Shown here: positions 7,216-30,517 of the stretch, in pieces
Layout of the letters: every line of letters starts with the position of its first letter
Numbering within the stretch: the stretch's first letter is position 1
From: Phycisphaeraceae bacterium
Lineage (GTDB): Bacteria > Planctomycetota > Phycisphaerae > Phycisphaerales > Phycisphaeraceae
Direction: 5' to 3'
NCBI GenBank assembly: GCA_963674705.1
Contig: OY771506.1
Span: 1,568,001 to 1,632,000 of the forward strand
DNA length: 64,000 bases
The notes under the pieces: generated by a model
The model's database searches: none
The model's input: the letters and a program-made list of their open reading frames with translations, nothing else
What the model was told of the DNA's origin: nothing
Position numbers and translations under genes: made by a program

Positions 7216-8277
7216 ATGGCCCAAGCCGACAAACCTTCCCGCAATAAACCCGCAAGGCCCAAGCCGCCCGCCACGCGTCCGAAACTCAAAGACGTGGCCG
7301 CGGCCTGTGGCGTCTCGATCGGCACGGTCAGCCGGGTACTCAACCGCGATGAATCGTTTTCTGCTCGTGAAGAAGTGCGCCAGCGCATCCTTGATGCCGC
7401 CGACCGCCTCGGATACGCACCCGACCTCGCGGCACGCAACCTCAACCGCGGCGTCACCCAGATCATCGGCGTGTTCGGCGACCCGAACACGCACATCGGC
7501 GAAGGCATCAACGACGCTGTTTTTGAAGGCATTTCCGAAGCGGTACGCAGCCAGGAATACGATGTCTTCTTTGATGTGACTTCCAAACACCCCACCGGCC
7601 GCAAACTCCCGTTCTGGCGCTTCGACGGCGCGATCCTGATCCAGTCGCCTTTGCCGGAGGTCGTGGAAGAACTCGACCGACGGTTCGTGCCTTACGTCTC
7701 GGTCAACGAAACCGTCGGCAACCCGATCGCTTCGGTTCTTGCAGACGACGTCATGGGCACGACGCGGATCATGCAGCACTTCGCCGAGCTGGGCCATCGT
7801 CGCATCGCCTACGCCAACGCGGGCAAAGGCTACTTCGAACACTACAGCGTGCCCGACCGCCACGACACCATCCAGGCGTTCTGCAAAGAGTACAACATGA
7901 CGCTCGTGCCGGGACACGACGAAGATTTTCTCTCAGCCGACCAGTTCCTGCGCCGCGCTGTCAAAGAACACGGCGCCACTGCTGTGCTCGCCTACGACCA
8001 CCGCATCGTCGTGCGCATCCTCGGCACAGCGTACCGCCTGGGCCTGCGCGTGCCCGAGGACTTCAGCCTCGCCTGCTTTAACGACGAATTCCCCGTCGCC
8101 GAGTTGTACCCGCCATTGACCGTCGTCTCCGTTTCCGGCAAAGCAATGGGACGCACCGCCGCAGCGATCCTGCTCGACGCCATGCGCACCAGCCAACCAG
8201 AAGACAGGCCCAGCACGCTTCGGCTCGAAGAAAAAGTCGTCGTACGCGCCTCTACAGCCCCGCCTCGCATGGATTAG
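7216..8277 (+). CDS. LacI family transcriptional regulator
   Basis: HTH KLKDVAAACGVSIGTVSRVLN, hinge YAPDLAARNL, LGHRRIA, VPEDFSLACF, PPLTVV, VVRAST. Confidence 0.95.
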   Translation: MAQADKPSRNKPARPKPPATRPKLKDVAAACGVSIGTVSRVLNRDESFSAREEVRQRILDAADRLGYAPDLAARNLNRGVTQIIGVFGDPNTHIGEGINDAVFEGISEAVRSQEYDVFFDVTSKHPTGRKLPFWRFDGAILIQSPLPEVVEELDRRFVPYVSVNETVGNPIASVLADDVMGTTRIMQHFAELGHRRIAYANAGKGYFEHYSVPDRHDTIQAFCKEYNMTLVPGHDEDFLSADQFLRRAVKEHGATAVLAYDHRIVVRILGTAYRLGLRVPEDFSLACFNDEFPVAELYPPLTVVSVSGKAMGRTAAAILLDAMRTSQPEDRPSTLRLEEKVVVRASTAPPRMD

Positions 8278-8412
8278 AGCGTTCTCAATCCAGGCGTAGC
8301 GTTTTGGGTGCCACACTTTGGCTGCGCAGCAGCAAAGTGTGCGTTGCGAGAACACACTTTGCCCTTCGGGTCAAAGTGTGGCACACGCTTCAGTTTGATT
8401 GAGAACGCTCTA
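8275..8412. mobile_element. MITE-like element with 16-bp perfect terminal inverted repeats and two internal REP-like hairpins
   Basis: TAGAGCGTTCTCAATC (8275-8290) and GATTGAGAACGCTCTA (8397-8412); internal CACACTTTG/CAAAGTGTG pairs at 8312/8333 and 8353/8372. Confidence 0.6.
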
Positions 8413-10266: not shown

Positions 10267-10280
10267 GAAAAGCGTTTTAC
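10267..10280. promoter_or_regulatory. Putative LacI operator (GAAAAGCGTTTTAC)
   Basis: Upstream of the secreted GH10 gene. Confidence 0.6.
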
Positions 10281-14565: not shown

Positions 14566-14579
14566 GACAAACGTTTTAC
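14566..14579. promoter_or_regulatory. Putative LacI operator (GACAAACGTTTTAC)
   Basis: Upstream of the GH2 gene. Confidence 0.6.
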
Positions 14580-14795: not shown

Positions 14796-14847
14796 TTGAC
14801 ACCTGCGGGCAAGGCTATTAACTTAATACGTAGGTAAAACGTTTTTC
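14796..14847 (+). promoter_or_regulatory. Sigma70 promoter plus downstream LacI operator for the DUF1559 operon
   Basis: TTGACA (14796-14801), 17 bp, TAACTT (14819-14824), then GTAAAACGTTTTTC (14834-14847). Confidence 0.65.
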
Positions 14848-14967
14848 ATGGTTCGGTTCATCCGCCGCGGGCTACGGGGCAGTCAACTCTTGAGCCCCGA
14901 AACCAAGCGGCCGCAAGTCTAAGCGGCGTGAACTGAAGCCCGTTGGGTTGCCTTGGAGGATATCAAG

Positions 14968-15900
14968 ATGGCGCATCGCCGAGCCTTCACGCTGATTGAA
15001 TTACTGGTCGTGATCTCCATCATAGCGCTGCTGGTCGGCATCCTCCTGCCTGCACTGGGCGCTGCCCGGCGGACCGCCCGCAGCGCCATGTGTCTAAGCA
15101 ACCAGCGCCAGATCATGGTGGCCCAACACAGCTACGCCGCGGATAACAATGACGTGTTCGCGCCCGGGCAGGATTGGCAGACGATCAGCCTGGATGGTGA
15201 AAATATCACGGGGCCCTACTGGTTTGTGATCCTTACCGCCCAGAATTATGCCGGCGGCTCCCGCGGCGCGGCGGTTGGCTCCAGCGTCTACATGTGCCCG
15301 GAAGGATCGGATGAGCAGATCAATTCAAACGATCTTTTCACAGCCGCAGGCATGATGCCGAATACGAGTGGGACTGAGGACCCACGAGCGAATCCCCTTG
15401 GCTTGGCATTTCTTGCACAAGGCGACACATCAAATCCGGAAAGGCAGTTGCGCACCAACTACGCGGTCAACACGACGTCGAATGCTGACCCGCCTTACGG
15501 CGCCAAGGTGGCGATGCAATCCGCTTTCCCGATGCAATACAGCTATCCGGCTGCTCCGGATAAGGCTAAATATCTGCCCCGAACCAACCTCGATGAAATG
15601 AAGTGGCCTGAAGAAACGATCACTTTCTTTGACGGGGTCGCCGCCACGATGGTGTATGCCGGAGGCACCAATGCGTTTGGGCGGATGGTGAATCGTCACG
15701 GTGACAATATCAACTATGCTTTTGTCGGTGGTCACGCTGCAGGTGTCAGCACAGCAAGAGTCCCCGATCCAACCAGCAACATGGCAACCGCCTATTGGGC
15801 GCAGTGGAACAACCCGACGGGTGTCGGGCCGCGCATCATGATTAATGCGGAGAATGAGTACGACATCAAAGTGCTCGCGTACAACCCGTTCACGAAGTGA
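14968..15900 (+). CDS. Prepilin-type N-terminal cleavage/methylation protein, DUF1559-like (xylan locus)
   Basis: [30 protein letters not shown]...[13 protein letters not shown]-terminal [23 protein letters not shown] before ATG 14968. Confidence 0.92.
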
Positions 15901-16018
15901 TCTTTCGGTCCGGGTTCGGTTTTACCGAATCGGGGCCCGTTTGCGATGAATATGATCTGAACGTTTACAAATTTGAGTCGCCTGATTAAAGCTCTCACAC
16001 TTCACAGGAGGATGGAAT

Positions 16019-17290
16019 ATGTTCGAGGCTCATATATGGAAAACCACGGCCGCTGCTGTTGTCGGTCTGGCTTTTGCCGCGACCGCTTCGGCGCAAAACG
16101 ACCCGCTGGCGCAGATTGACGTCGATTGGAACGGCAGCCCAACCTACACACCTGATGGCTTCACGGCCTGGGGTAGCTTTGAGCCGACGGCGCTGACCAC
16201 GGGTAATACCCATACCCAGACTTTCGGATCGATCACGTTGGCGATGACGCCGACCTATGGTCCGGACAACGGCGAGACCACCGGAGCGCTCGACGGCGAA
16301 CAGCGCTACATGGAATTCGGTGAAGGCAACGATCTTTATCGCAAGGATGTCTACGACGACTTCGTCCTCCTGCCGCGTAATACCGCCATCGGTATCGGGC
16401 AAAATTACTTTACGTATGAATTGAGCGGTCTGGCTGCGGATTCGGTCATCCGCGTTCGCATGTATAACTACGAACCCAACGCCAGCCCCGCGGACGAGAA
16501 CGCCGTCTATATGGCTTACAGCGCGGTGGACTCCGGCTTGTCATCCAGCTATCAACCTGCGGCGGACAACGCCGGTGAATATGCCAACCTCACACCCATG
16601 CTTCAGCGCAGCCGGTACACCGGGCCTTGGCCCGCCGACCCGGCGGTCGGTGATCCTTTGGGTTATGCGGTCGACTTCACCATCGCGACGGATGCGCTGG
16701 GCGAAGCCGTCTTCTATGGCTGGGCCGATCCGCTGAGCTACTCGCTTGATTCGGCGGGCCGATTCAACGGCATGGAAGTCTTTGCCCAGCAACTTGGCGA
16801 CATGAACTTCGACGATGTGGTTGACGCCAACGACGCCCCGATGTTCTACGACATCATCGCCGGCAACCTGCCGCAGGCTGTCGGTCTGGATGTCGCTGAT
16901 ATCACCAGCTTCGCGGCCGGTGTAGACCCGGGCGCACACGCTTGGGACGCCGCTGCTGATATGAACGGTGACGGCGTGCTCGACTTGGCCGACACCGCCC
17001 TGTTTGATGCCCTGATCGGGGCAAGTATCCCCGGCGATCTGAACGGCGACGGGTTTGTCGGCCTTGACGATCTGGACATCATCCTCGGCGCGTGGAACCA
17101 GAACGTACCACCTGCCGACGAGGCCGCCGACCCGTCCGGTGACGGTTTCGTGGGGCTGGACGATCTGGACATCGTGCTCAATAACTGGAATGCGGGCACA
17201 CCGCCGGCAGGATCGGTTGTTCCCGAACCCGCCAGCCTTGCCCTGCTGGGGCTGGGGATTGCTGCGATGATGCGTCGCCGCAGCTTCTGA
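16019..17290 (+). CDS. Non-catalytic secreted protein with two dockerin-like domains and PEP-CTERM
   Basis: Signal peptide (ATASA); GDMNFDD...ADMNGDGVLD module, then the GDLNGDGFVGLDDLD module; VPEPASLALLGLGIAAMMRRR. Confidence 0.85.
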   Translation: MFEAHIWKTTAAAVVGLAFAATASAQNDPLAQIDVDWNGSPTYTPDGFTAWGSFEPTALTTGNTHTQTFGSITLAMTPTYGPDNGETTGALDGEQRYMEFGEGNDLYRKDVYDDFVLLPRNTAIGIGQNYFTYELSGLAADSVIRVRMYNYEPNASPADENAVYMAYSAVDSGLSSSYQPAADNAGEYANLTPMLQRSRYTGPWPADPAVGDPLGYAVDFTIATDALGEAVFYGWADPLSYSLDSAGRFNGMEVFAQQLGDMNFDDVVDANDAPMFYDIIAGNLPQAVGLDVADITSFAAGVDPGAHAWDAAADMNGDGVLDLADTALFDALIGASIPGDLNGDGFVGLDDLDIILGAWNQNVPPADEAADPSGDGFVGLDDLDIVLNNWNAGTPPAGSVVPEPASLALLGLGIAAMMRRRSF

Positions 17291-17331
17291 TAGTAACACT
17301 TGTTTTTGATACACTTATATGATTTGGCTTC

Positions 17332-17361
17332 ACCGGTAGTCTTTCAGGGCTACCGGTTTTT
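17332..17361 (+). terminator. Intrinsic terminator
   Basis: ACCGGTAGTC-loop-GGCTACCGGT followed by a T run. Confidence 0.7.
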
Positions 17362-17535
17362 CGTTGTGTTTGACTTACAGTGAAAAAAGTCCGTCTAACG
17401 GGTTTAACAAGTTTGTCATTCTGATTTTGACGTTAAAATTGGTAATTTCAGTGTGAAACTGACAACGGGTCTCTATCCAGAAGTGTTTAACTTGTTTACC
17501 CTAGTGTAATCCAGTGTTGGGAGTTTCAGTTTTAA

Positions 17536-19944
17536 GTGGGAAGTAACAGCACGGCCTTCGATGACTTGAGGGGGGACGACGTTGGTACGTGTGATGATTC
17601 GGTGCTCAGTTCACTGATCCGATTTGCCCTGGATAACGCAACGATCTCGATGTTCACGGTGGATCCGGATGGCCGGTTCGTGGAAGTCAACGACACCGCC
17701 TGTCGGAATCTTGAATACACGCGCGAACAACTGCTGCGACTGTCTGTGCCGGACGTCAGCCTGTCGGTCACCCGCGAAACCTGGCCACAGCGTTGGCAGA
17801 CTATCCGCGAAGCGGGCAAAGCTGTATTCCTGCAGGAGCACAAGACCAAGAGCGGGCGGCGCTATCCGGTAGAGGTGGCGGCATCTTTTTTTGAGTATCA
17901 GGGGCGTGAATTCATCTGTGCCTGTGTCAATGACCTGACGGAGCGTATGCGTGTCGAGGAGTCTTTGTGCGCCAGCGAGCGATATAACCGGGCCCTGTTT
18001 GAGCAGAGCCCGGTAGGTCAGTCGCTGTGTCGGCTGGATGGTGTTCTGGTCGATGTCAATCAAGCGTATGCAAAAATCCTCGGTCGTTCGGCGACCCAGC
18101 TTGTCGGTCAGCCGTTTTTGCAGTTCACGCCGCAAGCGTATCACAGGCAGGGGAAAGAATCCTTGGTGTTGGCGCAGACGGAAGGTGGTTTCCCGGCCTA
18201 TGAGAAGAAGTACGTCAGGCCGGACGGAACGTGCGTATCGGTGAGGATCTCGGGCATCCTCTTGAATCGTGACGGCCAACCACTGATCTGGTGTTGTGTG
18301 CAGGACATTACCGAAGAGATACACGCACGCAACATCCAGAAGGAATCGCAGGCGTTACTCGAACGCCGGGTTGAGGAACGGACGCGTGAACTGACACGTG
18401 TGAATAAGCAACTGGCCCGTGAGGTCGCCGAGCGCCGACAGACCGAGCAGGCCCTGGCCGATGCCAAATCCAGGCTGCTGTCCGTGTTGTCGTCGAATCC
18501 TATGCTGGTCTACAGCTATCGGGTCGATACCGATCCGAAGGTGATCACGTTTGTCAGTGAGAACAGTGAGACGGAAACCGGATACCCCGCACAGAGTTTC
18601 CTGGAAGACCCGGATTTTTGGATCAATCATGTTCATCCGGATGACCGTGAGTGGGCACTGTATCAAGCGGCGGAATTAGTCGAGGCCGGCAGCGGCAGTT
18701 TCGAATACCGTTTCCTGCATGGCGACGGGACATACCGTTGGATCCGGGATACGGTGAGGGTTTCCCATAATGAAGCCGGATACCCGGCCGAACTGGTCGG
18801 TTGCTGGAATGATGTGACGCAGCAGAAGAAGGCCGAGCAGTTATTGCGTCTGGTGCAATCAGCGATGATGGCTATTTCCGAAGCCGTCATGATCACGGAT
18901 ACACGTTTTGAGGACGGTGGACCGTACATCGAATACGTAAATCCGGCGTTTGTAACGTTGACAGGGTACACCGGGGATGAGGTGGTGGGCAAGCCATCTC
19001 GCTTGATGCGGGGGTACGGTGCGGATGAGGAGGCACTGAAAAGACTGCAAAACGCGATACGTGAAGGCAAAACTTACAACGGACAGGTCGTTAACTACCA
19101 TAGGGACCGTACTGAGTATGCCGTCAAGTGGCAGGCGAGCCCGATCCGTGATGGCAACGGTGTCATTACGCATTGGCTGGTGGTGCAGGAAGATATTACA
19201 CAACAACTTCAGGACCAGGACACCCTGCGTAAGCGTGAACTGGAACTCGAACATGTTATGCGTCTGAGCACGATGGGAGAGATGGCGTCGGGCATCGCAC
19301 ACGAGTTAAATCAGCCGTTGACCGCCATCCATAACTACGCCCGCGGTGCGCTGCGTCGGATGAATCATCGAGAAGACGCGGACGACAGTCTGTTCCGGGC
19401 GATGGAGCACATCAGCGTGCAGGCCGAGCGATCCGGGCAGATTATCCGCAGGATGCGGCAGTTCGTGTCGCGGCGCGAACCCAGACGTTCGAGCATCGAA
19501 GTCCGTGAGCTGATACGGGACGTGCTGGTATTGTTTGAATCTGATCTGCGTTCACACAGCACGAGGGTCGAGCAGCATATCAGCGATGATTTGCCGATCC
19601 TTTATGCGGACCATATTCAGATCGAGCAGGTGCTTTTGAACCTGCTGCGTAATGCGACCGCGGCGATGCAGGACAACAAACCCGATGAAAAGGTAATCGA
19701 CGTCTATGTCTCGGCCGATGCCAAACGTCAGATCACGTTAAGTATCTGTGACAGGGGCTGCGGCCTGACAGACGAGCAACTGCAGCAGATATTCGATCCT
19801 TTCTTCACGACCAAGCGAGATGGGATCGGTATGGGATTAACCATCAGCCAGACGATTATTGAGATGCATGGCGGCCGCTTGATCGCTGAGCCCCGACCCG
19901 GCGGCGGCATGTGTTTCAAAATGATTCTACATGCTAAAGGGTAA
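17536..19944 (+). CDS. Cytoplasmic multi-PAS sensor histidine kinase (FixL/TtrS-like)
   Basis: Four PAS/PAC units, H-box GEMASGIAHELNQPL, N-box QVLLNLLRNA, DRGCG, FDPFFTTK, GMGLTIS. Confidence 0.92.
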   Translation: MGSNSTAFDDLRGDDVGTCDDSVLSSLIRFALDNATISMFTVDPDGRFVEVNDTACRNLEYTREQLLRLSVPDVSLSVTRETWPQRWQTIREAGKAVFLQEHKTKSGRRYPVEVAASFFEYQGREFICACVNDLTERMRVEESLCASERYNRALFEQSPVGQSLCRLDGVLVDVNQAYAKILGRSATQLVGQPFLQFTPQAYHRQGKESLVLAQTEGGFPAYEKKYVRPDGTCVSVRISGILLNRDGQPLIWCCVQDITEEIHARNIQKESQALLERRVEERTRELTRVNKQLAREVAERRQTEQALADAKSRLLSVLSSNPMLVYSYRVDTDPKVITFVSENSETETGYPAQSFLEDPDFWINHVHPDDREWALYQAAELVEAGSGSFEYRFLHGDGTYRWIRDTVRVSHNEAGYPAELVGCWNDVTQQKKAEQLLRLVQSAMMAISEAVMITDTRFEDGGPYIEYVNPAFVTLTGYTGDEVVGKPSRLMRGYGADEEALKRLQNAIREGKTYNGQVVNYHRDRTEYAVKWQASPIRDGNGVITHWLVVQEDITQQLQDQDTLRKRELELEHVMRLSTMGEMASGIAHELNQPLTAIHNYARGALRRMNHREDADDSLFRAMEHISVQAERSGQIIRRMRQFVSRREPRRSSIEVRELIRDVLVLFESDLRSHSTRVEQHISDDLPILYADHIQIEQVLLNLLRNATAAMQDNKPDEKVIDVYVSADAKRQITLSICDRGCGLTDEQLQQIFDPFFTTKRDGIGMGLTISQTIIEMHGGRLIAEPRPGGGMCFKMILHAKG

Positions 19945-20116
19945 ACCCCTATACGCTGAAAAAACAAGAATTTAGATGTTAAACTTGACGCATATTGTCG
20001 GCGATACTTTGTATCATGTTGGCCACTTGGTGTAGCCGATGTTGAATCGGCTTGGGTAATTTTAATTGGGGGCTTGTGGTGATGAAGGGGCCGTTTGCAC
20101 TCAGGCTTACAAGCGA

Positions 20117-20761
20117 ATGGAAACACGTCCAACGATCTATCTTGTAGACGACGACCAGGCAGTGCGTGATTCGTTAAAGTGGTTGATTGAATCAGCGGGG
20201 TGGCTCGTTCAATCCTACGAATCGGCACAGCCGTTGCTCGATGAGCTCGAAGCCGCGCAGCAGTTGTTGTCTGGATGCATTATTGCTGATGTCCGCCTGC
20301 CGGGCATGAGCGGTATGGCGCTGCAACTGGAATTGGTGCGGCGGAAAATCAACCTGCCGTTCATTATCATTACCGGGCACGGTGATGTGGCGATGGCGGT
20401 GCGCGCGATCAAAGCCGGTGCGCTCGACTTTATTGAGAAGCCCTTCTCAGACAAGTTGCTGCTTGACCGCATCGAAGACGCGATGCGCATCGATGAAAGA
20501 CGCCGGATTGATGAGAAGCAGTATCAACACATCAAACAGTGCTATGAGACATTGACCGCCCGGGAGCAGCAGGTGATGGGAGAAGTCGTCAGCGGCAAGT
20601 CCAACAGGCAGATCGCCACTGATTTGAACGTCACACAGAAGACGATCGAGCAGCACCGCGCCCACGTCATGACCAAGATGAAAGCCGATAGCCTGGCCCA
20701 TCTGGTCCGCATGGCGGTGGCGATCGACGTGATCCCCGCCCCACTGCCCAATGATGTCTGA
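20117..20761 (+). CDS. FixJ/LuxR-type response regulator
   Basis: YLVDDD, IADVRLPGMSG, ITGHGD, FIEKP, HTH LTAREQQV...SNRQIA...KTIEQHRAHVMTKM. Confidence 0.93.
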   Translation: METRPTIYLVDDDQAVRDSLKWLIESAGWLVQSYESAQPLLDELEAAQQLLSGCIIADVRLPGMSGMALQLELVRRKINLPFIIITGHGDVAMAVRAIKAGALDFIEKPFSDKLLLDRIEDAMRIDERRRIDEKQYQHIKQCYETLTAREQQVMGEVVSGKSNRQIATDLNVTQKTIEQHRAHVMTKMKADSLAHLVRMAVAIDVIPAPLPNDV

Positions 20762-20777
20762 TCATTACCGCCGGGCG

Positions 20778-22163
20778 TCAGTCGCGTTTGGGAGATTCTG
20801 TCCAGACTTGGTAGGACCAAGGCTGCAATTTTAGCTTCCCATTGGTTGACTTAGGCGCGTTCTTTGTAAAGACTGGTTGCATCCCATACACCCCTGCGGG
20901 TAATGAAGCAATCTGAGGATCATTACTCAGGTTCAACACCACCACAACACGATTGCCCTTAACCATACGCTGATAGGCAAGCACGCTGTCAGTGGTGCAA
21001 TAATCGATCACTTCAAGGCGGCCGCCGCTGTTGCCGTGCCACAACGCCGGATTCTTACGTTTCAGCTCTGACAATGTCCTGTATAGTTCTGCCATCGAGT
21101 CTTCGCGCCAGTTGATCGGTTCCCGCTCGAAGAATTCAAGGCGGTTGTCCAGCCGGGCCTCCTGGCCGTTGTATATCAAAGGCATCCCCTCGATCGTGAA
21201 CGTCAATACGGTGAACGTTTCCAACCCTTCGCCCAACCGCTCCACTGCCGTACCTTCCCATGAGTTGATGTCATGGTTGGTCGTGAAGTTCAGGCGGAAC
21301 CCATTGCCTGGCACAATCCTCGCTTCGGCGTTCAGGTAGTTCACCAGGTCGGTTACCGACTTTGTGCCGGCCTTAATCTCGTTCATGTTCGGTGTCAGGC
21401 TCCATGCGTATGCGGCGTCGAACGCGTATTCAATCAATTCCGGCTTCGCACCTTCACCCAGCATGAATACAGGCTTGATCTGCCACAGCGCATCACGTGC
21501 ACCAACCCAGAAGTCCAGCGGCACCCACTCGGCTGTGTCGCAGCGGAATCCATCAATATCTACCTCTCGCACCCAGAACGCCATCGCATCGATCATCGCT
21601 TCGCGCAAACCTTGTTCATCAAAGTTCAGGTCGACCACATCCTTCCATAACTCGATCGGCGGTACGAGTCCGCCATTTTCATCGCGCGTGAACCAGTCCG
21701 GATGCTGTTTGATCCACGGATGATCGTGCGATGTATGGTTGGCGACCCAGTCGATGATGACATACATGCCCAGGTCGTGCGCTTCTTGAACAGTTTGTTT
21801 GAACTCATCAAGCGTGCCGAACTCAGGATTGAAGGCCTTGTAATCCTTCACCGCATACGGACTGCCAAGTGTGCCGGACCGGCCTTCGACGCCGATCGGG
21901 TGGATGGGCATGAACCATAGAACCCCCACGCCCAGCTCTTTGAGCCTTGGTAATTCCTTACGAAACGCATCAAGTGTCCCGGGTTGAGAAAACTGGCGTA
22001 GATTGACCTCGTATACCACCAGGTTCTCAACCCACTTCGGCGGATCGGGATAGGGGTGTTCCCGTGCAAGTGTCTGTGTCGTGCCGCAACCAACTACGCA
22101 GCACGCCAATACCCACAGGCACACAACTCGCAGCCAATCCTGGAATCGTTCAATTCTACTCAC
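20778..22163 (-). CDS. GH13 alpha-amylase family lipoprotein
   Basis: Lipobox-like VVGC, DWVANH, GFRCDTA (nucleophile), LGEG (acid/base), TTNHD. Confidence 0.9.
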   Translation of the reverse strand: MSRIERFQDWLRVVCLWVLACCVVGCGTTQTLAREHPYPDPPKWVENLVVYEVNLRQFSQPGTLDAFRKELPRLKELGVGVLWFMPIHPIGVEGRSGTLGSPYAVKDYKAFNPEFGTLDEFKQTVQEAHDLGMYVIIDWVANHTSHDHPWIKQHPDWFTRDENGGLVPPIELWKDVVDLNFDEQGLREAMIDAMAFWVREVDIDGFRCDTAEWVPLDFWVGARDALWQIKPVFMLGEGAKPELIEYAFDAAYAWSLTPNMNEIKAGTKSVTDLVNYLNAEARIVPGNGFRLNFTTNHDINSWEGTAVERLGEGLETFTVLTFTIEGMPLIYNGQEARLDNRLEFFEREPINWREDSMAELYRTLSELKRKNPALWHGNSGGRLEVIDYCTTDSVLAYQRMVKGNRVVVVLNLSNDPQIASLPAGVYGMQPVFTKNAPKSTNGKLKLQPWSYQVWTESPKRD

Positions 22164-22237
22164 GGAAAATACCCTTGTTCTTCAGGTTTACGTTGCGATA
22201 TAGGTGAGGCGCCGGCTAAGGCTTTGCATACAACGCA

Positions 22238-23296
22238 TCAGACATCGATAAGCTCGGCCGACTCGCCGCGGAAGAAGTTGCTCCGCTTCGGTTCCAGCAG
22301 CATCGGCGCATCCCACGCCTCGTCACGCAGGAACCAACCGAAGCATTGCTCGAGGATCGAACTGACATCCGGGATATCCAGGCCCGCGATGCCCGGCGTC
22401 ATAAAGCGTGCCGGTGATTCGATATTCACCGCACAAATCGAGATATCCCGCCCGACCGCCAGACCCTCTTCCCAACAGGCCCGCATCGCGCCAAGCGCCG
22501 CGGGGAACGTCGTGCCGACCACCGCTGAGCCGCTCAGGTCCTGATCTTTAAGTTTCTCAAGCATGACCCGGTGGGCGTAAGGTGTCGGGTCCTCGAACGA
22601 GCGGGCCGGGTTTTCCCAGAGTTCGCCTTGGAGGCCTTCGCGTTTGATCCACTCCCGCCAGAGCCCGACACGTCGTTCGACTTCTGCGTTTTTCGTATGC
22701 GTCGAAATACAATGGATCTTCTTGTGCCCGTTTTTTTTCAGATGGCGGAAGACCTGGCGCACGTGTGTGTCGGGGAACAGGCGGATCGATTTGATCCCGT
22801 GCCGGCTCAGGTCGATGTCCAGCGAAACACACTTGCCATCACGCATCGCGCTGAGGACGCGCTCGGGTACATCACTTGAACTGGGGATCACGATCGCGCC
22901 ACCGCGATGACAGACCGCATCCATCACAACCGGGTCGTCCCAGTGCACATATTGCACCGGGCGCAGGTCCAGGTTGTGTTCGCGGGTGGCAACCGCCATG
23001 GTTTGGCGCAACTGTGTGAGGAAGGGCGAGGGATAGGCCGGGTAGAGCATCACGACCTGTGCGACTTGTTCTGTGGCTTGGTAATGCGGATTAACCTGTA
23101 GTGTTCCGCCCGTGCCGCGCTTCAGCACCCTTTTACCGATCAGCGCCTGCACCGCTTTGCGTGCGGTCATGTGGCTGACGCCGGTCTCCGCAGCGATCGT
23201 GCGTTCGCCGGGGAAAACCTCGAGCAGGTAATCACCCTGGCGTATCCGCCTTTCGATCACAGCCATGACCTCGGTGTATTTCGCTGAACGGGCCAC
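22238..23296 (-). CDS. GntR-HTH / LacI-type sensor chimeric regulator (AraR-like)
   Basis: GntR wHTH KYTEV...PGERTIAAETGVSHMTARKAV; C-terminal GHKKIHC, VGRDISICAV and PGIAGLD as in LacI ligand domains. Confidence 0.85.
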   Translation of the reverse strand: MARSAKYTEVMAVIERRIRQGDYLLEVFPGERTIAAETGVSHMTARKAVQALIGKRVLKRGTGGTLQVNPHYQATEQVAQVVMLYPAYPSPFLTQLRQTMAVATREHNLDLRPVQYVHWDDPVVMDAVCHRGGAIVIPSSSDVPERVLSAMRDGKCVSLDIDLSRHGIKSIRLFPDTHVRQVFRHLKKNGHKKIHCISTHTKNAEVERRVGLWREWIKREGLQGELWENPARSFEDPTPYAHRVMLEKLKDQDLSGSAVVGTTFPAALGAMRACWEEGLAVGRDISICAVNIESPARFMTPGIAGLDIPDVSSILEQCFGWFLRDEAWDAPMLLEPKRSNFFRGESAELIDV

Positions 23297-23439
23297 TATC
23301 GAACCTTCCTGTGGTTTGCATCCTTATTTATATAGAGCACGCCTCTATGACCCCATCAAAATACCAGCCGGGGCGGATGTCTGTCTGCTAGGGCGGCACT
23401 TTTTTACTGACTTCGGCCGCCAAGTGGTTAACAAAGGGG

Positions 23440-23482
23440 TTGACTTTAACCCTCACGCTGATATTATAACACTAGTGTTATA
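23440..23482 (+). promoter_or_regulatory. Sigma70 promoter overlapped by a perfect 18-bp palindromic operator
   Basis: TTGACT (23440-23445), TG-n-TATTAT (23459-23467), palindrome TATAACACTAGTGTTATA (23465-23482). Confidence 0.7.
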
Positions 23483-23549
23483 CTTTTCAAGCCCGCCGTC
23501 TTAGCAGGCACTCGGATAAATCTGATCCGTCGCACTTGGAGTCTTCGTT

Positions 23550-24491
23550 ATGACGACAACTGGCCGAAAAGCCGAACCGGGGTTCACGCTGATCGAATTG
23601 CTGGTGGTGATCTCGATAATCGCGCTTCTGGTCGGGATCCTGCTGCCTGCTTTGGGTGCGGCACGCAAGTCCGCCCAGCGGATGAAGTGCCTGGCGAACC
23701 TGAGGTCGATGGGCCAAGGCGCCCAGTCCTTCGCAACCGACCACCAGTATTACATCCCGATCAGCAGCAGCGACCTGGCGTGGGTGAATAACGGCACAGG
23801 TTTTCCTTCCGAACTGCGTGGAAAAATCGCGTCGTATAACGACCCAGCCTACCCGCGTATGAAAGACTGGGCCAGCGCGCTGGTGCCTTACCTCGGCGAC
23901 TCTTCGCAGGACGTCCCTTTCGACACCGCCGAGCCTAAAGTAGTGTCGATGTTCCGCTGCCCGAGTGATCCATATGAAGAAGGCCACGAGGTTGTCAGCA
24001 ACATCAGCGGGTCTCAACAGGGGATCCCGCTACCGATCTCGTTCAGTGTAAATGCGGATGTGACCACCTACGACGACACGCCCGGCGATGGCAGGGCTTG
24101 GTGGATGCCTAACGGCGGCGGGATGAACGTTCAGGAAATCCAGGTCTACAACGGCGATGCGTCTCCGGGGAGTCTCGACCGCATCCGGTCTATCTCAAAA
24201 ACCATGCTCTATGCCGATGGGGGCACGCGCTGCTATCCCAGCAGCTCGCCTATCCGCCGCGGCATCGTTTTGATGTACACCGCGGATAAGCGATTACCCA
24301 ATAAGGACAATCCCGGCACACTCGATGCGATCTACCAGTCCAACATCTTCCGGGAGAAGTTGCCACTGGCTGAGATCAATGCGGAGGATGACCGGCACAG
24401 TAACGCGCTGAACGTCGCGTTCGCGGACGGGCATGGTTCGTCGCATCAACCCGGAGAATTTCAGGAGGTTTATCTTTCGCCGAACAAGTAG
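23550..24491 (+). CDS. Prepilin-type N-terminal cleavage/methylation protein, DUF1559-like (alpha-glucan locus)
   Basis: [29 protein letters not shown]...CLANLR, FRCPSD, C-terminal RHSNALNVAFADGH (H-X9-DG). Confidence 0.93.
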   Translation: MTTTGRKAEPGFTLIELLVVISIIALLVGILLPALGAARKSAQRMKCLANLRSMGQGAQSFATDHQYYIPISSSDLAWVNNGTGFPSELRGKIASYNDPAYPRMKDWASALVPYLGDSSQDVPFDTAEPKVVSMFRCPSDPYEEGHEVVSNISGSQQGIPLPISFSVNADVTTYDDTPGDGRAWWMPNGGGMNVQEIQVYNGDASPGSLDRIRSISKTMLYADGGTRCYPSSSPIRRGIVLMYTADKRLPNKDNPGTLDAIYQSNIFREKLPLAEINAEDDRHSNALNVAFADGHGSSHQPGEFQEVYLSPNK

Positions 24492-24604
24492 TCGGCGTGT
24501 TATTCACAAGGCCGATCCGGCTGTGAACGATAACGGATCGGTTCGGCTGGTGCATCGCGAGCGTTGAATTCAATATTGTCTTACACACTTAGGAGGTTCT
24601 TGAT

Positions 24605-26185
24605 ATGAAGTTTTACAAAGCCGGCTTAACGGCCATCGCATTGTTGGCATTAGCAACACCGACCTACGGCACGTTCGTCATCGCGGGTGAAGTGCAGGAC
24701 GAACAAGGCGACCTCGCCGACTGGGACCCGACCGGTAGTTCGCTTCTGATGAGCGACCTGGGCGGCGGTATCTATACAATCTCGGTCCCCAACCTGCTCG
24801 ACGGCACGCGCTACGACTTCAAGGTCGTAGATGATGAAGGCACGCCCCCGGCCGTGTGGGGCGATCCGGAAATCACCCCCAACCAACTCACCCTCATCGG
24901 TGACGCGGACGGCACGGTCCAGATCACCGTGGACACCAACGTCACCAACGCCATCGGCAGCTTCGCCACGTGGATCAACTTCGACAACGCGCCGCTGCAT
25001 GTGGTCGGTGACTTCATGGATGAAGCCGGCGGCTTCGCCGACTGGGACCCGGCCGACCCGGCATTCGCCATGACCGATCAGGGCAGCGGTTACTACACGT
25101 TTGATGCTGTGATCAGCACGCCCGGTGTGTACAACTTCAAGGTTACCTTCGGCGACGGCTGGGACGATCAGATCGGTGTCGGCGGATTCAACAACAACGC
25201 CGCGACCTATCAGTTCATCACCTCGGCTGTCGACGAACCTGTCACGATGTTCGTCGACCTGTCGAACCGGCAAATCGGTGCGACAGCCGCGGTGTATCAG
25301 ATCGGCACACTCACGGTTGCAGGTGACTTCCAGACCGAACAGGGCGACCCCGCCGACTGGGATGTTGAGAACAGCTCTATTGTCATGAGTGAATCCGGCG
25401 GCGTGTATACCGTCACCGTCAGCAACCTCAGTGACGGTGTCGCGTATGACTTCACGATCTTCAATGACGCGGGCTCCCCGCCGGTATCTTCGAGTGATCC
25501 GAAGATCACACCCGTTGATATTACGATGTACGGCGATGCGTCCGGCGATGCCACCATCACGGTTGATACCAACGTTACGAACCTCCAGAACAACCCATCC
25601 GTGTGGGTGGACTTTGACACCGCCCCGCTGCAGGTGGTTGGTGACTTCATGGATGAAGCCGGCGGTTTAGCCGACTGGGACCCGGCCGACCCGGCCTTCG
25701 CCATGACCGCTGAAGGTGATGGCTACTACACCTTCGATGCCGTTATCAGTACACCCGGCACCTACGTGTTCAAGACCAGCTTCGGCGCGGGTTGGTCCGA
25801 CCAGGTCGGCACCGACGGCTTCAGCGATAACGCTCAAGTATTCGTCTTCGAAACGACCATAGCCGACGAAGCGATCACCATGTTCGTCGACTTGGCGAAC
25901 CGTCAACTTGGTCTCGTTTCCGCGAGCATCCCCGGCGATCTGAACGGTGACGGCTTCGTCGGTCTGGATGACTTGGATATTATCCTCAGCGCATGGAATC
26001 AGAACGTACCCCCGGCCGACAGCGCGGCCGATCCCTCCGGTGATGGTTTTGTCGGCCTGGATGACCTGGACATCGTGCTCAATCACTGGAACGAAGGCAC
26101 GCCCCCCAGTGCAGTCGTGCCCGAGCCGGCAACCGTGGCGCTTCTGGGAATGGGTTTGTTCGCGACGATGAAGCGTCGAGGCTGA
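24605..26185 (+). CDS. Non-catalytic PEP-CTERM/dockerin protein with four X25-like (putative alpha-glucan-binding) domains
   Basis: Four xxG(E/D)x(Q/M)xExG..ADWD repeats resembling pullulanase X25; dockerin-like tail; VPEPATVALL...KRRG. Confidence 0.82.
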   Translation: MKFYKAGLTAIALLALATPTYGTFVIAGEVQDEQGDLADWDPTGSSLLMSDLGGGIYTISVPNLLDGTRYDFKVVDDEGTPPAVWGDPEITPNQLTLIGDADGTVQITVDTNVTNAIGSFATWINFDNAPLHVVGDFMDEAGGFADWDPADPAFAMTDQGSGYYTFDAVISTPGVYNFKVTFGDGWDDQIGVGGFNNNAATYQFITSAVDEPVTMFVDLSNRQIGATAAVYQIGTLTVAGDFQTEQGDPADWDVENSSIVMSESGGVYTVTVSNLSDGVAYDFTIFNDAGSPPVSSSDPKITPVDITMYGDASGDATITVDTNVTNLQNNPSVWVDFDTAPLQVVGDFMDEAGGLADWDPADPAFAMTAEGDGYYTFDAVISTPGTYVFKTSFGAGWSDQVGTDGFSDNAQVFVFETTIADEAITMFVDLANRQLGLVSASIPGDLNGDGFVGLDDLDIILSAWNQNVPPADSAADPSGDGFVGLDDLDIVLNHWNEGTPPSAVVPEPATVALLGMGLFATMKRRG

Positions 26186-28348
26186 AAAAAACATGGCCGA
26201 TTTGGCTGTGTAAGTTGTAAAATACACCGAGCAGGAGAAACCCTTTACCGTAGATGCGTGTGCGGCTTTCGGTTTCCTCCTACTCGGTCGTTTCGTAATG
26301 TTTAAAAAGAAGTTGAGTAGTACATGACCGCGTTCAGCACCCTCATCAATGTTTTTGTACATAAACGGTTCTCACGCCGTGAGGGATACCTCCGGACCCT
26401 CATGGCGGCGGGGAGCCAACGTTTGGGTTCAACACTAGGCGCATTGTTGGTGTGTGCGCTGAGTTTGGTATGTGCAAATCCGGCGCCGGCTGTTCCCGCG
26501 GTCGAAGACATCGTGATGTACGAGGTCAACCTTCGTGCTTTCAGTGATGCGGGTAATCTGGCGGGTGTCACCGCACGACTCGACGATATCCAATCGCTCG
26601 GTGCCAATGTCATCTGGCTAATGCCCATCCATCCGATCGGACAGATCAACAGTGCCGGCGGATTGGGTTCCCCTTACTCTGTAGCAAACTACACGCAGGT
26701 CAGTAGCGAGTACGGCACGCTTTCCGACCTGACCACACTCGTCGACCAGGCCCATCAGCGCGGCATGTATGTTGTCATGGATTGGGTCGCCAACCACACC
26801 GCGTGGGACAATCCCTGGATCGCCAACACCGATTGGTACACACAAAACGCGCAGGGTGAAATCATTTCTCCTGCGGGCACGGGCTGGAATGATGTAGCAG
26901 ATCTGAACTACGACAATACCGACATGCGCGCCGCGATGGTCAGCGCGATGCAGTACTGGGTTACCGAGGTCGGTATCGATGGCTACCGCGCCGATGCGGC
27001 CGACTTCGTGCCCTACGACTTCTGGCAGGACGCGATCGCTTCCGTGCGTGTCAGCACGACGCGCGACCTGCTCATGCTTGCTGAAGGTGCACGAAGTGAC
27101 CACTACGCTGCGGGTTTCGACATGACCTACGGCTGGGACTTCTACGGCACGGTACAGAACGTGTTCAATTCGTCTGCATCAGCAACGGCGCTCTATCAAA
27201 GGTACGTCAATGAGTTTTCATCCGTACCGACGGGCTCGGGTATCCTGCAATTTACCACCAATCATGATGAGAGCGCGTGGGACGCAACACCCGTCGAACT
27301 GTTCGGCAGTCTCGAAGCCTCGCTCGCCGCGTACGCTGTCACCGTTGCTTACGGCGGCACACCGCTTGTCTATAACGGCCAGGAAATCGGCTGGGAAGAT
27401 AACATCCCCTTCTTCACCAAGGCTCCGCTCGACTGGGACACCGGCCAGACAACCGAGCAGTGGTACACGCAATTACTGAACGCCCGCGCCGATCATGCCG
27501 CACTTCGGCAAGGAGACATCAGCGATCAGAGCACCAGCAATGTCGCATTTCTTGTGCGCGAATATGAGGGCGACCAGGTGCTTGTCATGGTTAATACTCG
27601 TAATTCATCGCAACAGGTGCAGGTCCCCGTTTCGCTTCAAGGCAGTTGGAGCGATCTACTTGCCAATCAGGCGGCGACGTTAAGCGCTACACGCACACTC
27701 GCACCATATGAAGTGGTTATCCTCGGCAAGACCGTCGTGCCCGCGTTTGTTGTTGCGGGTGAATTACAGACAGAGCAAGGCGATCCTGCCGACTGGGACC
27801 CGGTTAATAGCTCGCTGATCATGGTCGAAGCCGGCGGTATTCACAGCGTTACGGTGAACAACCTTGTCAATGGCGTCGCCTACGACTTCAAGGTAGTCAA
27901 CGATCAAGGCTCGCCCCCCGCCGAGTGGGGTGACCCGGAGATTACGCCGAACCAACTCACCGTCATAGGAGATGCCGACGGCTCAATTACGATCACCGTC
28001 GACACGAATAGCATCAACAACATTGGTGAGTATGCAACGTGGATCAACTTTGATAACGCCCCCTTGCAAGTTGTCGGCGACTTCATGATAGAAGCCGGCG
28101 GCGCAGCCGATTGGGACCCTTACGATGATGCTTTCAACATGACCGATCAGGGCGATGGTTACTACACTTTCGACGCTGTCATCAGCACGCCCGGCATCTA
28201 TCAGTTCAAAGCCACTTTCGGCAACGGCTGGGACGACCAGGTTGGTATCGATGGCTTCAACAATGACGCGATCACCAAAGGCTTCGAGATCACCGAGGCG
28301 GATCAAAGCATCACGCTTTATGTTGATCTTGCCAGCCGTGAACTTGGT
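24674..28348 (+). repeat. Three copies of an about 200-codon two-domain unit (24674-25279, 25310-25912, 27746-28348)
   Basis: Clear protein and DNA similarity, e.g. PL(H/Q)VVGDFM(D/I)EAGGxADWDP and YYTFDAVISTPG in all three. Confidence 0.9.
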
Positions 28349-28636
28349 GTGTTGTTTGTCACTCTCGAAGGCGACCTCAACGGCGACGGCTTTGTTGGGC
28401 TCGACGATTTGGATATCGTCCTCGCCGCATGGAATCAGAGTGTTCCTCCTGCTAACAGTGCGGCCGATCCTTCAGGCGACGGCTTCGTAGGATTGGATGA
28501 TCTGGATATCGTGCTCAACCACTGGAACGAAGGCACACCGCCAACAAGTAATGTCAATATCCCCGAACCCGCTTCATTGATCTGTTTAACGACCTTGTCG
28601 GCGGTATTGTTACGACATACCAGGCAATCCGCTTAA
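26324..28636 (+). CDS. Secreted GH13 alpha-amylase with two X25-like domains, dockerin-like domain and PEP-CTERM
   Basis: MYEVNLR, DWVANH, GYRADAA, LAEG, TTNHDE; IPEPASLICL. True start may be ATG 26402. Confidence 0.9.
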   Translation: MTAFSTLINVFVHKRFSRREGYLRTLMAAGSQRLGSTLGALLVCALSLVCANPAPAVPAVEDIVMYEVNLRAFSDAGNLAGVTARLDDIQSLGANVIWLMPIHPIGQINSAGGLGSPYSVANYTQVSSEYGTLSDLTTLVDQAHQRGMYVVMDWVANHTAWDNPWIANTDWYTQNAQGEIISPAGTGWNDVADLNYDNTDMRAAMVSAMQYWVTEVGIDGYRADAADFVPYDFWQDAIASVRVSTTRDLLMLAEGARSDHYAAGFDMTYGWDFYGTVQNVFNSSASATALYQRYVNEFSSVPTGSGILQFTTNHDESAWDATPVELFGSLEASLAAYAVTVAYGGTPLVYNGQEIGWEDNIPFFTKAPLDWDTGQTTEQWYTQLLNARADHAALRQGDISDQSTSNVAFLVREYEGDQVLVMVNTRNSSQQVQVPVSLQGSWSDLLANQAATLSATRTLAPYEVVILGKTVVPAFVVAGELQTEQGDPADWDPVNSSLIMVEAGGIHSVTVNNLVNGVAYDFKVVNDQGSPPAEWGDPEITPNQLTVIGDADGSITITVDTNSINNIGEYATWINFDNAPLQVVGDFMIEAGGAADWDPYDDAFNMTDQGDGYYTFDAVISTPGIYQFKATFGNGWDDQVGIDGFNNDAITKGFEITEADQSITLYVDLASRELGVLFVTLEGDLNGDGFVGLDDLDIVLAAWNQSVPPANSAADPSGDGFVGLDDLDIVLNHWNEGTPPTSNVNIPEPASLICLTTLSAVLLRHTRQSA

Positions 28637-28771: not shown

Positions 28772-30517
28772 ATGTCAGAACCGTTGGATGAGAAAACCTT
28801 ACTTGAACAAACCGAGGCGAAGCCTTTCATGGCGCGCATCCCGGTTTATCTGCGCTTGTCCGGGCCGGGCTTTCTTCAATCGGCGTGCACGATAGGTGGA
28901 GCGACGCTCGGCGCATCATTATTCCTTGGCGTGATGGTTGGCTATCAGGGTTTGTGGATACAACCCGTCGCAATGCTGCTCGGGTTGACGATGTTGACTG
29001 TGATTGTTTACATCACGCTGTCGACAGGTGAAAGGCCCTTCCGCGCGATCAATCGCCACATCAATCCGGTGCTTGGTTGGGGCTGGCTGATCGCGACGAT
29101 CGCCGCCAACATGATCTGGGGCTTACCGCAATATAACCTGGCCGCTGGGGCGCTGACACAAAACGTTTTGCCCGAACTGCTCGGGCCCGGCAAACCATTG
29201 GGCGGCGAAAGCGGTACACTCGGTATGGGTATCGCCTCGGGCCTTATGGCGGCGATGGCGGTGGCCGTCATTTGGTTCTACAAGGGACGAAGCGCCGGCG
29301 TTAAATTGTTTGAAGGTCTGATTAAACTCATCGTTGCGATGATCGTTCTGTGTTTTGTCATCATGGTCATCAAACTCGTGACAACCGGCGGTCTGCCCGT
29401 TGGCGAAGCCCTGGCGGGTTTCGTGCCTGATCCCAAACTTCTTTTCCAGCCTGCCGATGTTTACATGCCCGTGCTCGAACGTTGCGGTGAATCCGCCGGC
29501 TTCTGGCAGCATCGAATCGTTAACACCCAACGCGACATCATCTACGCATCCATCGCCTCGGCTGTCGGTGTGAACATGACGTTCCTGCTGCCCTACTCGA
29601 TCCTCGCACGCGGATGGGGAAAGGCCCACCGTACACTTGCCGGCTTCGACCTTTTTATGGGTTTGCTCCTGCCCTTCGCGTTCGTTACGTCCTGCCTGGT
29701 CATCGTCTCCGGCGCAGTTTTTCACGGCCATTACGACGAGCAGCACATCAATTACAGCTTTGTTCAACAAGGTATGGATGCAGCCAATCCGCAGTACCGC
29801 GCCAACCTGATCGCTGTGACTGAATCAACCATGGGCCGAGATGGATGGGCACAACTCGATGCGAACGGCAAAGCCGAATCGCTTGATGCAACACCACGTG
29901 CCGATCGCGAGATGGCGTCCATGCTGATCCGCCGGAGTGACAAAGACCTTTCAGCAACCCTCACCCAACTCTTCGGCACATCCATCGGGCGCATCATCTT
30001 TGGTATCGGCGTCTTCTTCGTCGCCCTTTCCACCGCAACTGTCTTGATGCTTATTAACGGATATGCGGTATGCGAGGCCCTCAACCGCGAACACACGGGC
30101 CTTACATGGCGCATCGGCTCGTTGCTACCGGTGGTTAGCGTGATCGGCCCATTCTTCTGGGGGCATATGGCGGCGTACCTTGTCGTACCAACGAGCATCA
30201 TCGGCCTGATGATGTTGCCCGTCGCGTTCTGGTCGTTCTTCCTGATGCTCAACAGCCGGTCGGTGTTGCGCGACGCCTGTCCGCGTGGGATCAAGGGGCT
30301 GTTGATCAACATTATCGTCGGCGCGATCACCATGCTGTTTACGGTCCTCAGCGTCTGGGCGATGTGGGGCAAAGCTGAGACTAAAGGCACCCCCGGGCGT
30401 GTCGGTTTAATACTAACACTATGTCTTTTACTAATTGCGGTGCTCGTTACGCATATCACCACTCACGCCCGGAGAAGCGGCGCAGACCGTGATCGCACAG
30501 CGGATACCGGCAGTTGA
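28772..30517 (+). CDS. Nramp/APC-superfamily membrane transporter (non-canonical)
   Basis: About 11-12 TM segments, LSGPGFLQSACTIGG start, AVGVNMTFLLPY; canonical Nramp DPGN absent. Confidence 0.65.
   Translation: MSEPLDEKTLLEQTEAKPFMARIPVYLRLSGPGFLQSACTIGGATLGASLFLGVMVGYQGLWIQPVAMLLGLTMLTVIVYITLSTGERPFRAINRHINPVLGWGWLIATIAANMIWGLPQYNLAAGALTQNVLPELLGPGKPLGGESGTLGMGIASGLMAAMAVAVIWFYKGRSAGVKLFEGLIKLIVAMIVLCFVIMVIKLVTTGGLPVGEALAGFVPDPKLLFQPADVYMPVLERCGESAGFWQHRIVNTQRDIIYASIASAVGVNMTFLLPYSILARGWGKAHRTLAGFDLFMGLLLPFAFVTSCLVIVSGAVFHGHYDEQHINYSFVQQGMDAANPQYRANLIAVTESTMGRDGWAQLDANGKAESLDATPRADREMASMLIRRSDKDLSATLTQLFGTSIGRIIFGIGVFFVALSTATVLMLINGYAVCEALNREHTGLTWRIGSLLPVVSVIGPFFWGHMAAYLVVPTSIIGLMMLPVAFWSFFLMLNSRSVLRDACPRGIKGLLINIIVGAITMLFTVLSVWAMWGKAETKGTPGRVGLILTLCLLLIAVLVTHITTHARRSGADRDRTADTGS

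Follow-up and report, generated by a model that had tools for sequence, protein, structure and literature searches.

We examined a 64,000-nucleotide stretch of the genome of a Phycisphaeraceae bacterium (contig OY771506.1 of GCA_963674705.1, positions 1,568,001 to 1,632,000; here called the window) in which two neighboring polysaccharide loci, one for xylan (locus A) and one for starch (locus B), each carry a gene for a type IV prepilin with a DUF1559-like head. Such DUF1559-like genes appear to be members of nutrient clusters and to encode swappable, ligand-specific minor pilins for capture and import via a filament and a secretin, a tentative reading of gene contents and predicted folds to which we give a probability of about 0.45. 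The head-domain clades of these proteins track the nutrient (alpha-glucan, xylan, or cobalamin), and we prefer this reading over its rivals because the prepilin stays constant while its partners change and because the cobalamin clade also occurs in genomes without a TonB barrel. The source genome is one contig of 5.54 Mb (96.6% complete), in which our own script called 4228 genes (numbered g1 onward), and 72 DUF1559-like prepilin genes were picked by eye out of 91 matches to a local profile. Comparison genomes are labeled G144, G248, G358, G429, G479, G519, and G520.

An earlier note on this DNA had claimed two prepilins, their PEP-CTERM partners, and carbohydrate-active enzymes (CAZymes), namely, the glycoside hydrolases (GH) GH10 and GH2 at one locus and two GH13 at the other. 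All of these genes lie where the note had placed them, as listed here in window coordinates.

1295..4562, minus strand: sugar ATP-binding cassette (ABC) transporter, with a binding protein at 3165-4562 and two permease-like genes; TIGR03850 below cut-off; operator copy at 4647.
4910..6046, plus strand: GH10-type xylanase; operator copy at 4837; the G429 orthologue is a GH10.
6297..6938, plus strand: small PEP-CTERM protein; operator copies at 6098 and 6207.
7216..8277, plus strand: LacI-family repressor that likely regulates locus A, with weaker copies of the operator at 7066 and 7167.
8616..10205, minus strand: GH10 with a dockerin-like repeat and a PEP-CTERM-like tail; operator copy at 10267.
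10356..14504, minus strand: large protein of the GH2 family, its C terminus weakly resembling the carbohydrate-binding module (CBM) CBM60; operator copy at 14566.
14796..14847, plus strand: probable promoter (TTGACA at 14796) and LacI-type operator (14834-14847).
14968..15900, plus strand: prepilin A, with a class III signal peptide and a DUF1559-like head of the xylan-locus clade, GGH replacing DGH.
15901..16018, plus strand: spacer with a hairpin (15907-15937), a weak operator copy (15959), and AGGAGG.
16019..17290, plus strand: protein X, with an unnamed beta-sandwich domain (weakly CBM-like), dockerin-like repeats, and PEP-CTERM.
17536..20761, plus strand: two-gene pair of a PAS histidine kinase and a LuxR-type response regulator that lies between A and B, with no apparent link to either.
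20778..22163, minus strand: GH13 alpha-amylase-family enzyme; its orthologue (54%) adjoins the prepilin B orthologue in G144.
22238..23296, minus strand: repressor with a GntR helix-turn-helix and a periplasmic-binding (sugar-binding) fold, divergent from prepilin B and kept in G144.
23440..23482, plus strand: sigma70-type promoter (TTGACT-16-TATTAT, 23440-23467) and operator, a perfect 18-bp palindrome (23465-23482).
23550..24491, plus strand: prepilin B, with the N-methyl motif and PF07596, of the alpha-glucan clade; predicted type IV pilin core with a loop-rich insertion.
24605..26185, plus strand: protein with four X25 (pullulanase-associated) modules (PF22058, 4 stretches, 126 bits), a dockerin-like repeat, and PEP-CTERM.
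26324..28636, plus strand: GH13 with two X25 modules, a dockerin-like repeat, and a PEP-CTERM-like tail.
28772..30517, plus strand: Nramp-like inner-membrane carrier, directly downstream of the starch genes.

Seven genes of locus A have a LacI-type operator in common, from which we infer that the locus is coregulated as a xylan regulon. When the palindrome at 14834 was searched against intergenic DNA genome-wide, allowing at most 2 mismatches, there were 16 matches, and 6 of them fell in locus A (4647, 4837, 6098, 10267, 14566, and 14834). With the seed site left out, 5 of the 15 remaining matches lay within 1930 of the 937,623 intergenic bases (p~1e-10), and weaker copies were found at 6207, 7066, 7167, and 15959. 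Because the operator copies cluster in this way, prepilin A likely belongs to the xylan regulon. The local sugar-sensing repressors described in the earlier note were present at both loci, as the GntR-type protein at B and as the LacI protein at 7216-8277, which lies three genes from prepilin A and beyond the note's span. Between the convergent LacI and GH10 genes there are nested inverted repeats with 28-nt and 13-nt arms (8275-8412).

At locus B, a palindrome related to the operator also occurs upstream of the G144 orthologue. Elsewhere on the contig, at 651358, a palindrome 3 mismatches off operator B lies upstream of the prepilin gene g479, where a similar GntR-type repressor and GH99/GH71 genes adjoin. 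The X25 protein at 24605 is likely a surface starch-binding protein, judging from its modules; a PDB sequence search with it gave no match. The Nramp-like carrier at 28772-30517 may be a divergent type of sugar carrier. PF07589 (PEP-CTERM) was above the cut-off in both the 16019 and the 24605 proteins, and the dockerin family PF00404 was above it for the former and below it for the latter. The earlier dockerin/PEP-CTERM description of the 24605 protein is corrected by its four X25 modules. For protein X, the predicted model was poor (pLDDT, 41.7), and its CBM-like matches (best Z 7.4, rmsd 3.2, 117 aligned, to YXIM; CBM22 and CBM4 at Z ~6) are leads only, as is an Atlas lead of 0.85; together they hint at a CBM-like sandwich fold.

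Both loci thus hold a prepilin, a PEP-CTERM protein, CAZymes, and a repressor, as the single repeated plan of the note had it, but the gene order is not fixed genome-wide and the PAS kinase/response regulator pair, ahead of which lies a terminator-like hairpin (17332-17357), separates A from B. The operator-bearing sigma70 promoters fared unevenly: the one at B was found by the scan together with its palindrome, but at A the second hexamer matches at 3/6 positions and the scan did not report it. Promoter consensus alone is not evidence, because the scan yielded 5 sites versus 8.4 in shuffles. Both spacers behind the prepilins are predicted to fold into hairpins and do end in AGGAGG, but a strong ribosome binding site (RBS) followed 12 of 59 prepilins, compared with 135/408 PEP-CTERM genes and 655/4226 of all genes, and strong RBS or hairpin was rejected as a hallmark of prepilin loci, the strong RBS not being special there.

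The two prepilins are identical across 28 residues from the cleavage-site Phe and have heads with no BLAST match above 50 bits, which agrees with the near-identical helix and dissimilar middles noted earlier. The identical helix was rejected as a mark of a special A-B relation, since it is common family-wide. PF07963 and TIGR02532 were above cut-off for both proteins, and the cleavage motif (G/A before the cut, F-x-x-x-E after it) is kept in 70/72 prepilins. Membership of DUF1559 held for prepilin B, which scored 28 bits against PF07596 (cut-off 23.3), but not for prepilin A, which gave no match at E<=0.01; we call it DUF1559-like because a profile built from the paralogues of this genome scored it at 179 bits. 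Prepilin B and its clade carry a C-terminal motif that we take to be H-X9-DG (H283, D293, and G294), and in clade A the D of the DG is replaced by G (GGH); no dedicated H-X9-DG model was among the profile matches. The family as a whole resembles DUF1559/SBP_bac_10 (PF07596) of bacteria of the Planctomycetes-Verrucomicrobia-Chlamydiae (PVC) group in its N-methyl motif, long hydrophobic helix, C-P-S-D and RH...N...F-x-DGH motifs, and paralogue expansion (72 here), and differs in that prepilin A falls under the Pfam model and has GGH.

A structure model of prepilin B, built on 96 sequences, had a pLDDT of 92.7 and a pTM of 0.89, with a helix at residues 14-64 and a head with few short strands. 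In VIA-align, its first 12 rows were all type IV pilins or pseudopilins, with EpsG second and the ComP structure 5hz7 among the matches, and the best match (Z 4.5, rmsd 3.9, 121 aligned) spanned residues 12-308. Prepilin B is predicted to be a type IV pilin core with a loop-rich insertion of ~150 residues, and an Atlas look-up of its head returned unnamed clusters. Machinery that could assemble such proteins is encoded in the genome (18 type II/IV secretion ATPase matches over cut-off, 5 secretins, and 2 A24 peptidases), together with 3 exosortases; the ATPases and secretins make an unusually rich type IV filament machine set. One prepilin paralogue is two genes away from a PilM, and no pilus assembly gene was found in locus A or locus B.

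Genome-wide, sugar regulators, glycoside hydrolases, and PEP-CTERM genes are found near prepilin genes far more often than in the nulls and controls, which is the adjacency that the earlier note had proposed to count. The LacI-type set comprised 43 PF13377 matches, of which 41 mapped onto called genes, and the null was made by circular shifts. Twenty-two of the 41 regulators were at most 3 genes from a prepilin (null mean 3.5, max 11) and 34 at most 10 genes (null mean 10, max 24); at distance 1 there were 7, merely equal to the null maximum. Counted from the prepilins, 21/72 had a LacI-type gene at most 3 genes away (local null 7.5, max 13), or 29% versus 15% for PEP-CTERM genes. A same-strand PEP-CTERM neighbor was present for 40/72 prepilins (null 9; local null 12.4; max 22). 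A fixed prepilin-then-PEP-CTERM order, in the manner of SusC then SusD, was rejected: the PEP-CTERM gene was upstream in 26/72 cases and downstream in 21/72, so that upstream was as common as downstream.

For the protein content of these neighborhoods, we compared 205 genes at most 2 from a prepilin (the window pair, regulators, other prepilins, and genes below 100 amino acids were left out, and proteins were cut at 800 amino acids) with 137 control genes (of 154, after 17 had been dropped for size) drawn around 40 random centers, each over 12 genes away from the nearest prepilin. GH or polysaccharide lyase (PL) families, with BNR proteins counted as such in both sets, were found in 30/205 neighbors versus 6/137 controls (Pfam; p=0.002), and PEP-CTERM in 91/205 versus 10/137. 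LamG-only, SSF, and ROK proteins numbered 7, 5, and 4 among the neighbors and 0, 0, and 0 among the controls. Three prepilin loci (L014, L021, and L028) have a common neighbor in which TPR repeats are joined to a phosphodiesterase domain.

The heads follow their substrates across genomes, as the earlier note had expected of a comparison between head domains and neighboring CAZymes. With the head of prepilin B (residues 60-313) as the query, clade B matched in 28/401 genomes of the class, at 30 places in four families, and all 28 places outside the source genome were examined. A GH13 homologue of this genome's genes was found by BLAST nearby, in the fetched stretch, at 26/28 of these places, which come from 27 other genomes; the calls were confirmed by Pfam on a subset, in which one long homologue of g929 gave no amylase match. 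The LacI of the common alpha-glucan locus was present at 19/28 places. As for the two places without GH13, one has an X25 protein and the common-locus LacI and the other ends at the contig end. Gene order is shuffled among the clade B loci. The source genome's own copy of this main alpha-glucan locus, conserved class-wide, lies at 1224235-1240065 of the contig and contains a divergent GH13-like PEP-CTERM protein (g929), a pullulanase, and a fusion of a binding protein with an ABC permease. The prepilin g2510, 42% identical to B over the head, sits 2 Mb off that locus beside two PEP-CTERM genes. The starch module in the window is a second alpha-glucan locus, whose regulator and partners differ from those of the common one; G144, of another genus, has both loci and keeps the GntR-type regulator and the related palindrome.

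Other clades are narrower. The clade A head was found in 2/143 genomes of the family and in 0/400 other genomes of the class, and two metagenome scans were empty as well. In G429, of another genus, three GH10, a GH52, X (33%), and LacI (60%) adjoin the A orthologue, with an operator-like site. The clade of g4113, which adjoins GH16/GH17, occurs in 6/400 other genomes, with a GH nearby in 5/6 loci and GH16 in 2. The clade of g448 (GH20/ROK) was found in 0/400 other genomes. These counts measure conservation and not repeated origin, because kin are not independent.

The clearest case outside glycans is cobalamin. At 1884655-1887834 of the contig, the sole cobalamin riboswitch found in the genome is followed by two PEP-CTERM genes, one of them a DUF4465 gene, and then by the prepilin g1450; DUF4465 proteins of Bacteroides bind cobalamin according to the available part of a preprint (bioRxiv 10.1101/2025.07.31.667871). 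The g1450 head matched in 51/144 genomes of the family, and we examined 20 of the 54 places outside the source genome, chosen across genera on long contigs. A riboswitch lay upstream on the same strand in 19/20 loci, and the partners varied, with a DUF4465 homologue in 7/20 and a homologue of the other partner in 4/20; in 2/20, the riboswitch directly precedes the prepilin, with no PEP-CTERM gene between. In 5 near-complete genomes, every cobalamin riboswitch is at a prepilin locus. Two of these (single-contig) genomes are without a TonB barrel, another two have a single barrel away from the riboswitch locus, and seven barrels occur in G248. No BtuB-type barrel under a riboswitch was found in the source genome, G479, G358, G519, or G520. 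The note's pilus-based polysaccharide system is partly supported: prepilin B models as a type IV pilin, but the cobalamin clade shows that the system is not confined to polysaccharides.

At 3252902-3256416 of the contig, a Fur-family gene, a small protein, a prepilin, and two His-rich PEP-CTERM proteins run in one direction, which from its genes is possibly a metal-uptake version of the same plan; the setting resembles that of the zinc protein ZepA in the accessible text of PMC10957091, a likeness of context. Other prepilin paralogues adjoin metallophosphoesterases or glycerol-3-phosphate genes.

The usual outer-membrane importers are nearly missing from this genome. SusD gave 0 matches genome-wide, with a positive control in B. 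thetaiotaomicron detected, and the single TonB barrel lies outside both loci, ahead of a HAMP-type kinase in a signaling-type context, which upholds the earlier statement that neither locus has a TonB-dependent transporter or SusD; a second, Plug-only match is near a CHASE2 cyclase. Inner-membrane ABC, SSF, and Nramp-like carriers are present in prepilin loci. Going by these gene contents, prepilins may replace the usual outer-membrane importers. In the mechanism that we propose, the sugar (or lack of B12) would derepress the prepilin locus, prepilin peptidase would cleave the product, as in type IV filament biology, and the minor pilin would be incorporated at the tip of a type IV filament. 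The variable loops of its head would bind the ligand, handed over by coexpressed surface PEP-CTERM enzymes and binding proteins, and the filament would draw the nutrient through a secretin into the periplasm, from where the ABC/SSF carriers of the locus would take it onward. The prepilin would in this way take over the task of the TonB-dependent transporters of other diderms. In a wider version, which we regard as somewhat doubtful, Phycisphaerae replace TonB-dependent transporters by dozens of ligand-specific pilins (for glycans, cobalamin, and perhaps metals and phosphate esters): every nutrient locus would contribute a tip subunit of its own to a common retractile type IV filament, which would pull the ligand inward by way of a secretin.

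Several observations weigh against nutrient-specific pilins. Only 21/72 prepilins have a LacI-type gene at most 3 genes away, and several adjoin housekeeping genes. Only 1/72 is at most 10 genes from an assembly ATPase or secretin. The fold match is weak, as Foldseek with the prepilin B model gave no match at E<=0.001, its structural matches included no conspicuous lectin, and a lectin-like site could not be identified in it. The common alpha-glucan locus of the source genome (g929-g935) has lost the prepilin that adjoins it elsewhere, and tracking of substrate by clade among kin may simply reflect a single locus being passed on vertically. In G248, a TonB barrel lies under a second riboswitch, 1.9 kb downstream of the cobalamin prepilin; both genes are under riboswitches, and therefore prepilin and TonB barrel are not exclusive. 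The cross-phylum adjacency that the note had also proposed to count was found only in part. In a sample of 33 of 78 unrelated PVC loci that passed the H-X9-DG pattern, taken from an N-terminal-helix scan that returned unrelated paralogues and without a matched control, a LacI-type gene was at most 3 genes away in 4/5 Lentisphaeria but in 1/7 Phycisphaerae, 1/9 Verrucomicrobiota, and 0/12 other Planctomycetota. GH/PL accounted for 6/103 neighbors (1/40 for Planctomycetia and unplaced Planctomycetota), and PEP-CTERM was adjacent in 3/33 loci. We caution against generalizing the nutrient link to every DUF1559 protein.

The main rival, somewhat unlikely in our judgment, is that these prepilins are cargo-specific secretion adaptors, in which a pseudopilin like those of the type II secretion system (T2SS) recruits the cotranscribed PEP-CTERM/dockerin proteins for export and follows the nutrient via its cargo. 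The abundance of PEP-CTERM genes on the same strand and among the 205 neighbors is what such an adaptor would give, several T2SS-type ATPases and secretins are available, EpsG was the second structural match, and T2SS proteins rise on fucoidan in an externally digesting planctomycete, as the available text of PMC11685898 has it. However, a prepilin clade persists while its partners are swapped for nonhomologous proteins, and the two cobalamin loci with no PEP-CTERM gene between riboswitch and prepilin, as well as the scarcity of adjacent PEP-CTERM genes in the cross-phylum loci, do not fit this role. The numbers do not match either, with ~408 PEP-CTERM-like genes (a pattern count, as are 199 dockerin-like genes) for 72 prepilins, and g929-g935 has PEP-CTERM cargo and no prepilin.

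It is less probable again that the pilins are ligand specific but serve capture or adhesion only, holding the cell or its enzymes on the substrate while import runs by porins or another route. All of the genomic evidence for ligand specificity fits this, and glycan-binding minor pilins are reportedly known from S. sanguinis. Within the text available, the type IV-like MUL2 pilus of Akkermansiaceae (PMC13174399) and the pili and chitin adhesion of Fimbriiglobus (cited in PMC11131199) are further precedents. What this explanation leaves out is the cobalamin-repressed clade, whose ligand is a soluble micronutrient requiring active outer-membrane passage, and the two single-contig genomes without a TonB barrel. 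An improbable explanation is that the pilin helix is a mere anchor for periplasmic binding or sensing proteins that feed carriers or signaling, with no filament. The low linkage to assembly genes (1/72) and the frequent SSF/ABC carriers nearby would agree with it, as would proteins of the family in Tuwongella, which occur in detergent-soluble fractions and adjoin secreted-protein genes in the accessible text of PMC8567305, but the cleavage motif is kept in 70/72, a whole pilin topology is predicted, and the loci already have ABC binding proteins and cytoplasmic repressors. Chance is very improbable: high copy numbers (72 prepilins, ~408 PEP-CTERM genes, and many CAZymes), regional clustering, and N-terminal helices identical family-wide could give such neighborhoods without a functional link, but the counts exceed the global and local shift nulls, operators are shared, and contexts are conserved by clade.

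Ligand-specific minor pilins have a precedent in ComP of the competence pilus, a single DNA receptor in uptake by a type IV filament. Our proteins resemble it in predicted pilin fold, variable surface, and shared machinery encoded elsewhere; unlike ComP, they are dozens of nutrient-controlled paralogues with a proposed function in uptake. Compared with the Sus-type polysaccharide utilization loci (PUL) of Bacteroidota, the loci likewise have coregulated CAZymes, a tandem noncatalytic starch-module protein, a surface GH13, a local sugar regulator, and one locus per substrate, but no SusC/SusD, with PEP-CTERM tails instead of lipoprotein anchors and a pilin-fold protein as the substrate-tracking constant in an order that is not fixed. 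The btu operons of Bacteroides similarly have a riboswitch upstream of a DUF4465 gene, as at the cobalamin locus of this genome, outside the window, and in relatives, but here the prepilin follows instead of a TonB-dependent barrel and DUF4465 bears PEP-CTERM (bioRxiv 10.1101/2025.07.31.667871, available part). MUL2, as far as the available text of PMC13174399 describes it, likewise links a pilin-like protein with glycan utilization in a PVC bacterium that has no SusC/D, but it is one conserved four-gene locus with PilM, and here many substrate-specific prepilins are scattered in nutrient loci.

The filament type and the protein family are known; a nutrient-specific repertoire was not found in the literature searched. 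Planctomycetales have at least 41 DUF1559 paralogues per genome, often flanked by secreted-protein genes (PMC8567305), and in their accessible parts the papers on DUF1559 report expansion, secreted neighbors, and stress regulation, not nutrient loci (PMC8567305, PMC4807772, PMC2754498, and PMC5352709). We found no paper linking DUF1559 clades to nutrients, operators, or riboswitches in a search that subscription papers and bioRxiv supplements lay outside, and none combining a cobalamin riboswitch with a prepilin among the matches listed. The supplements of PMC11685898, PMC13526803, and PMC11361711 had no DUF1559, prepilin, or PF07596 label, although genes may be labeled otherwise there, and the main texts, supplements aside, of preprints on Kiritimatiellia synteny and marine CAZyme gene clusters had no pilin terms.

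Elsewhere in the window, a large secreted-type protein (37471-40641) has BLAST similarity to a PL11 lyase of a relative, and a tRNA separates its gene from that of a 1399-amino-acid dockerin/PEP-CTERM protein (40976-45175); tRNAs were the only Rfam elements found in the window. Two cohesin matches within one 5744-amino-acid frame (999450-1000430 of the contig) mark a possible scaffold for the ~199 dockerin-like genes.

Planctomycetota are major polysaccharide degraders without SusC/D, and DUF1559 ranks with the largest of their families whose function is unknown; a 2025 review, in its available text, gives the players in outer-membrane passage of large nutrients as unknown and discusses pili (PMC12673574). 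The starch, xylan, and cobalamin clades supply named protein-ligand pairs for binding and deletion tests, and prepilin clades offer a marker by which nutrient loci could be called in lineages overlooked by PUL tools. If import by these pilins is true, nutrients would have a second general way across the outer membrane, and if a pilin repertoire does replace TonB transporters, DUF1559 would be the long-sought receptor family for fiber-associated uptake of macromolecules in Planctomycetota.

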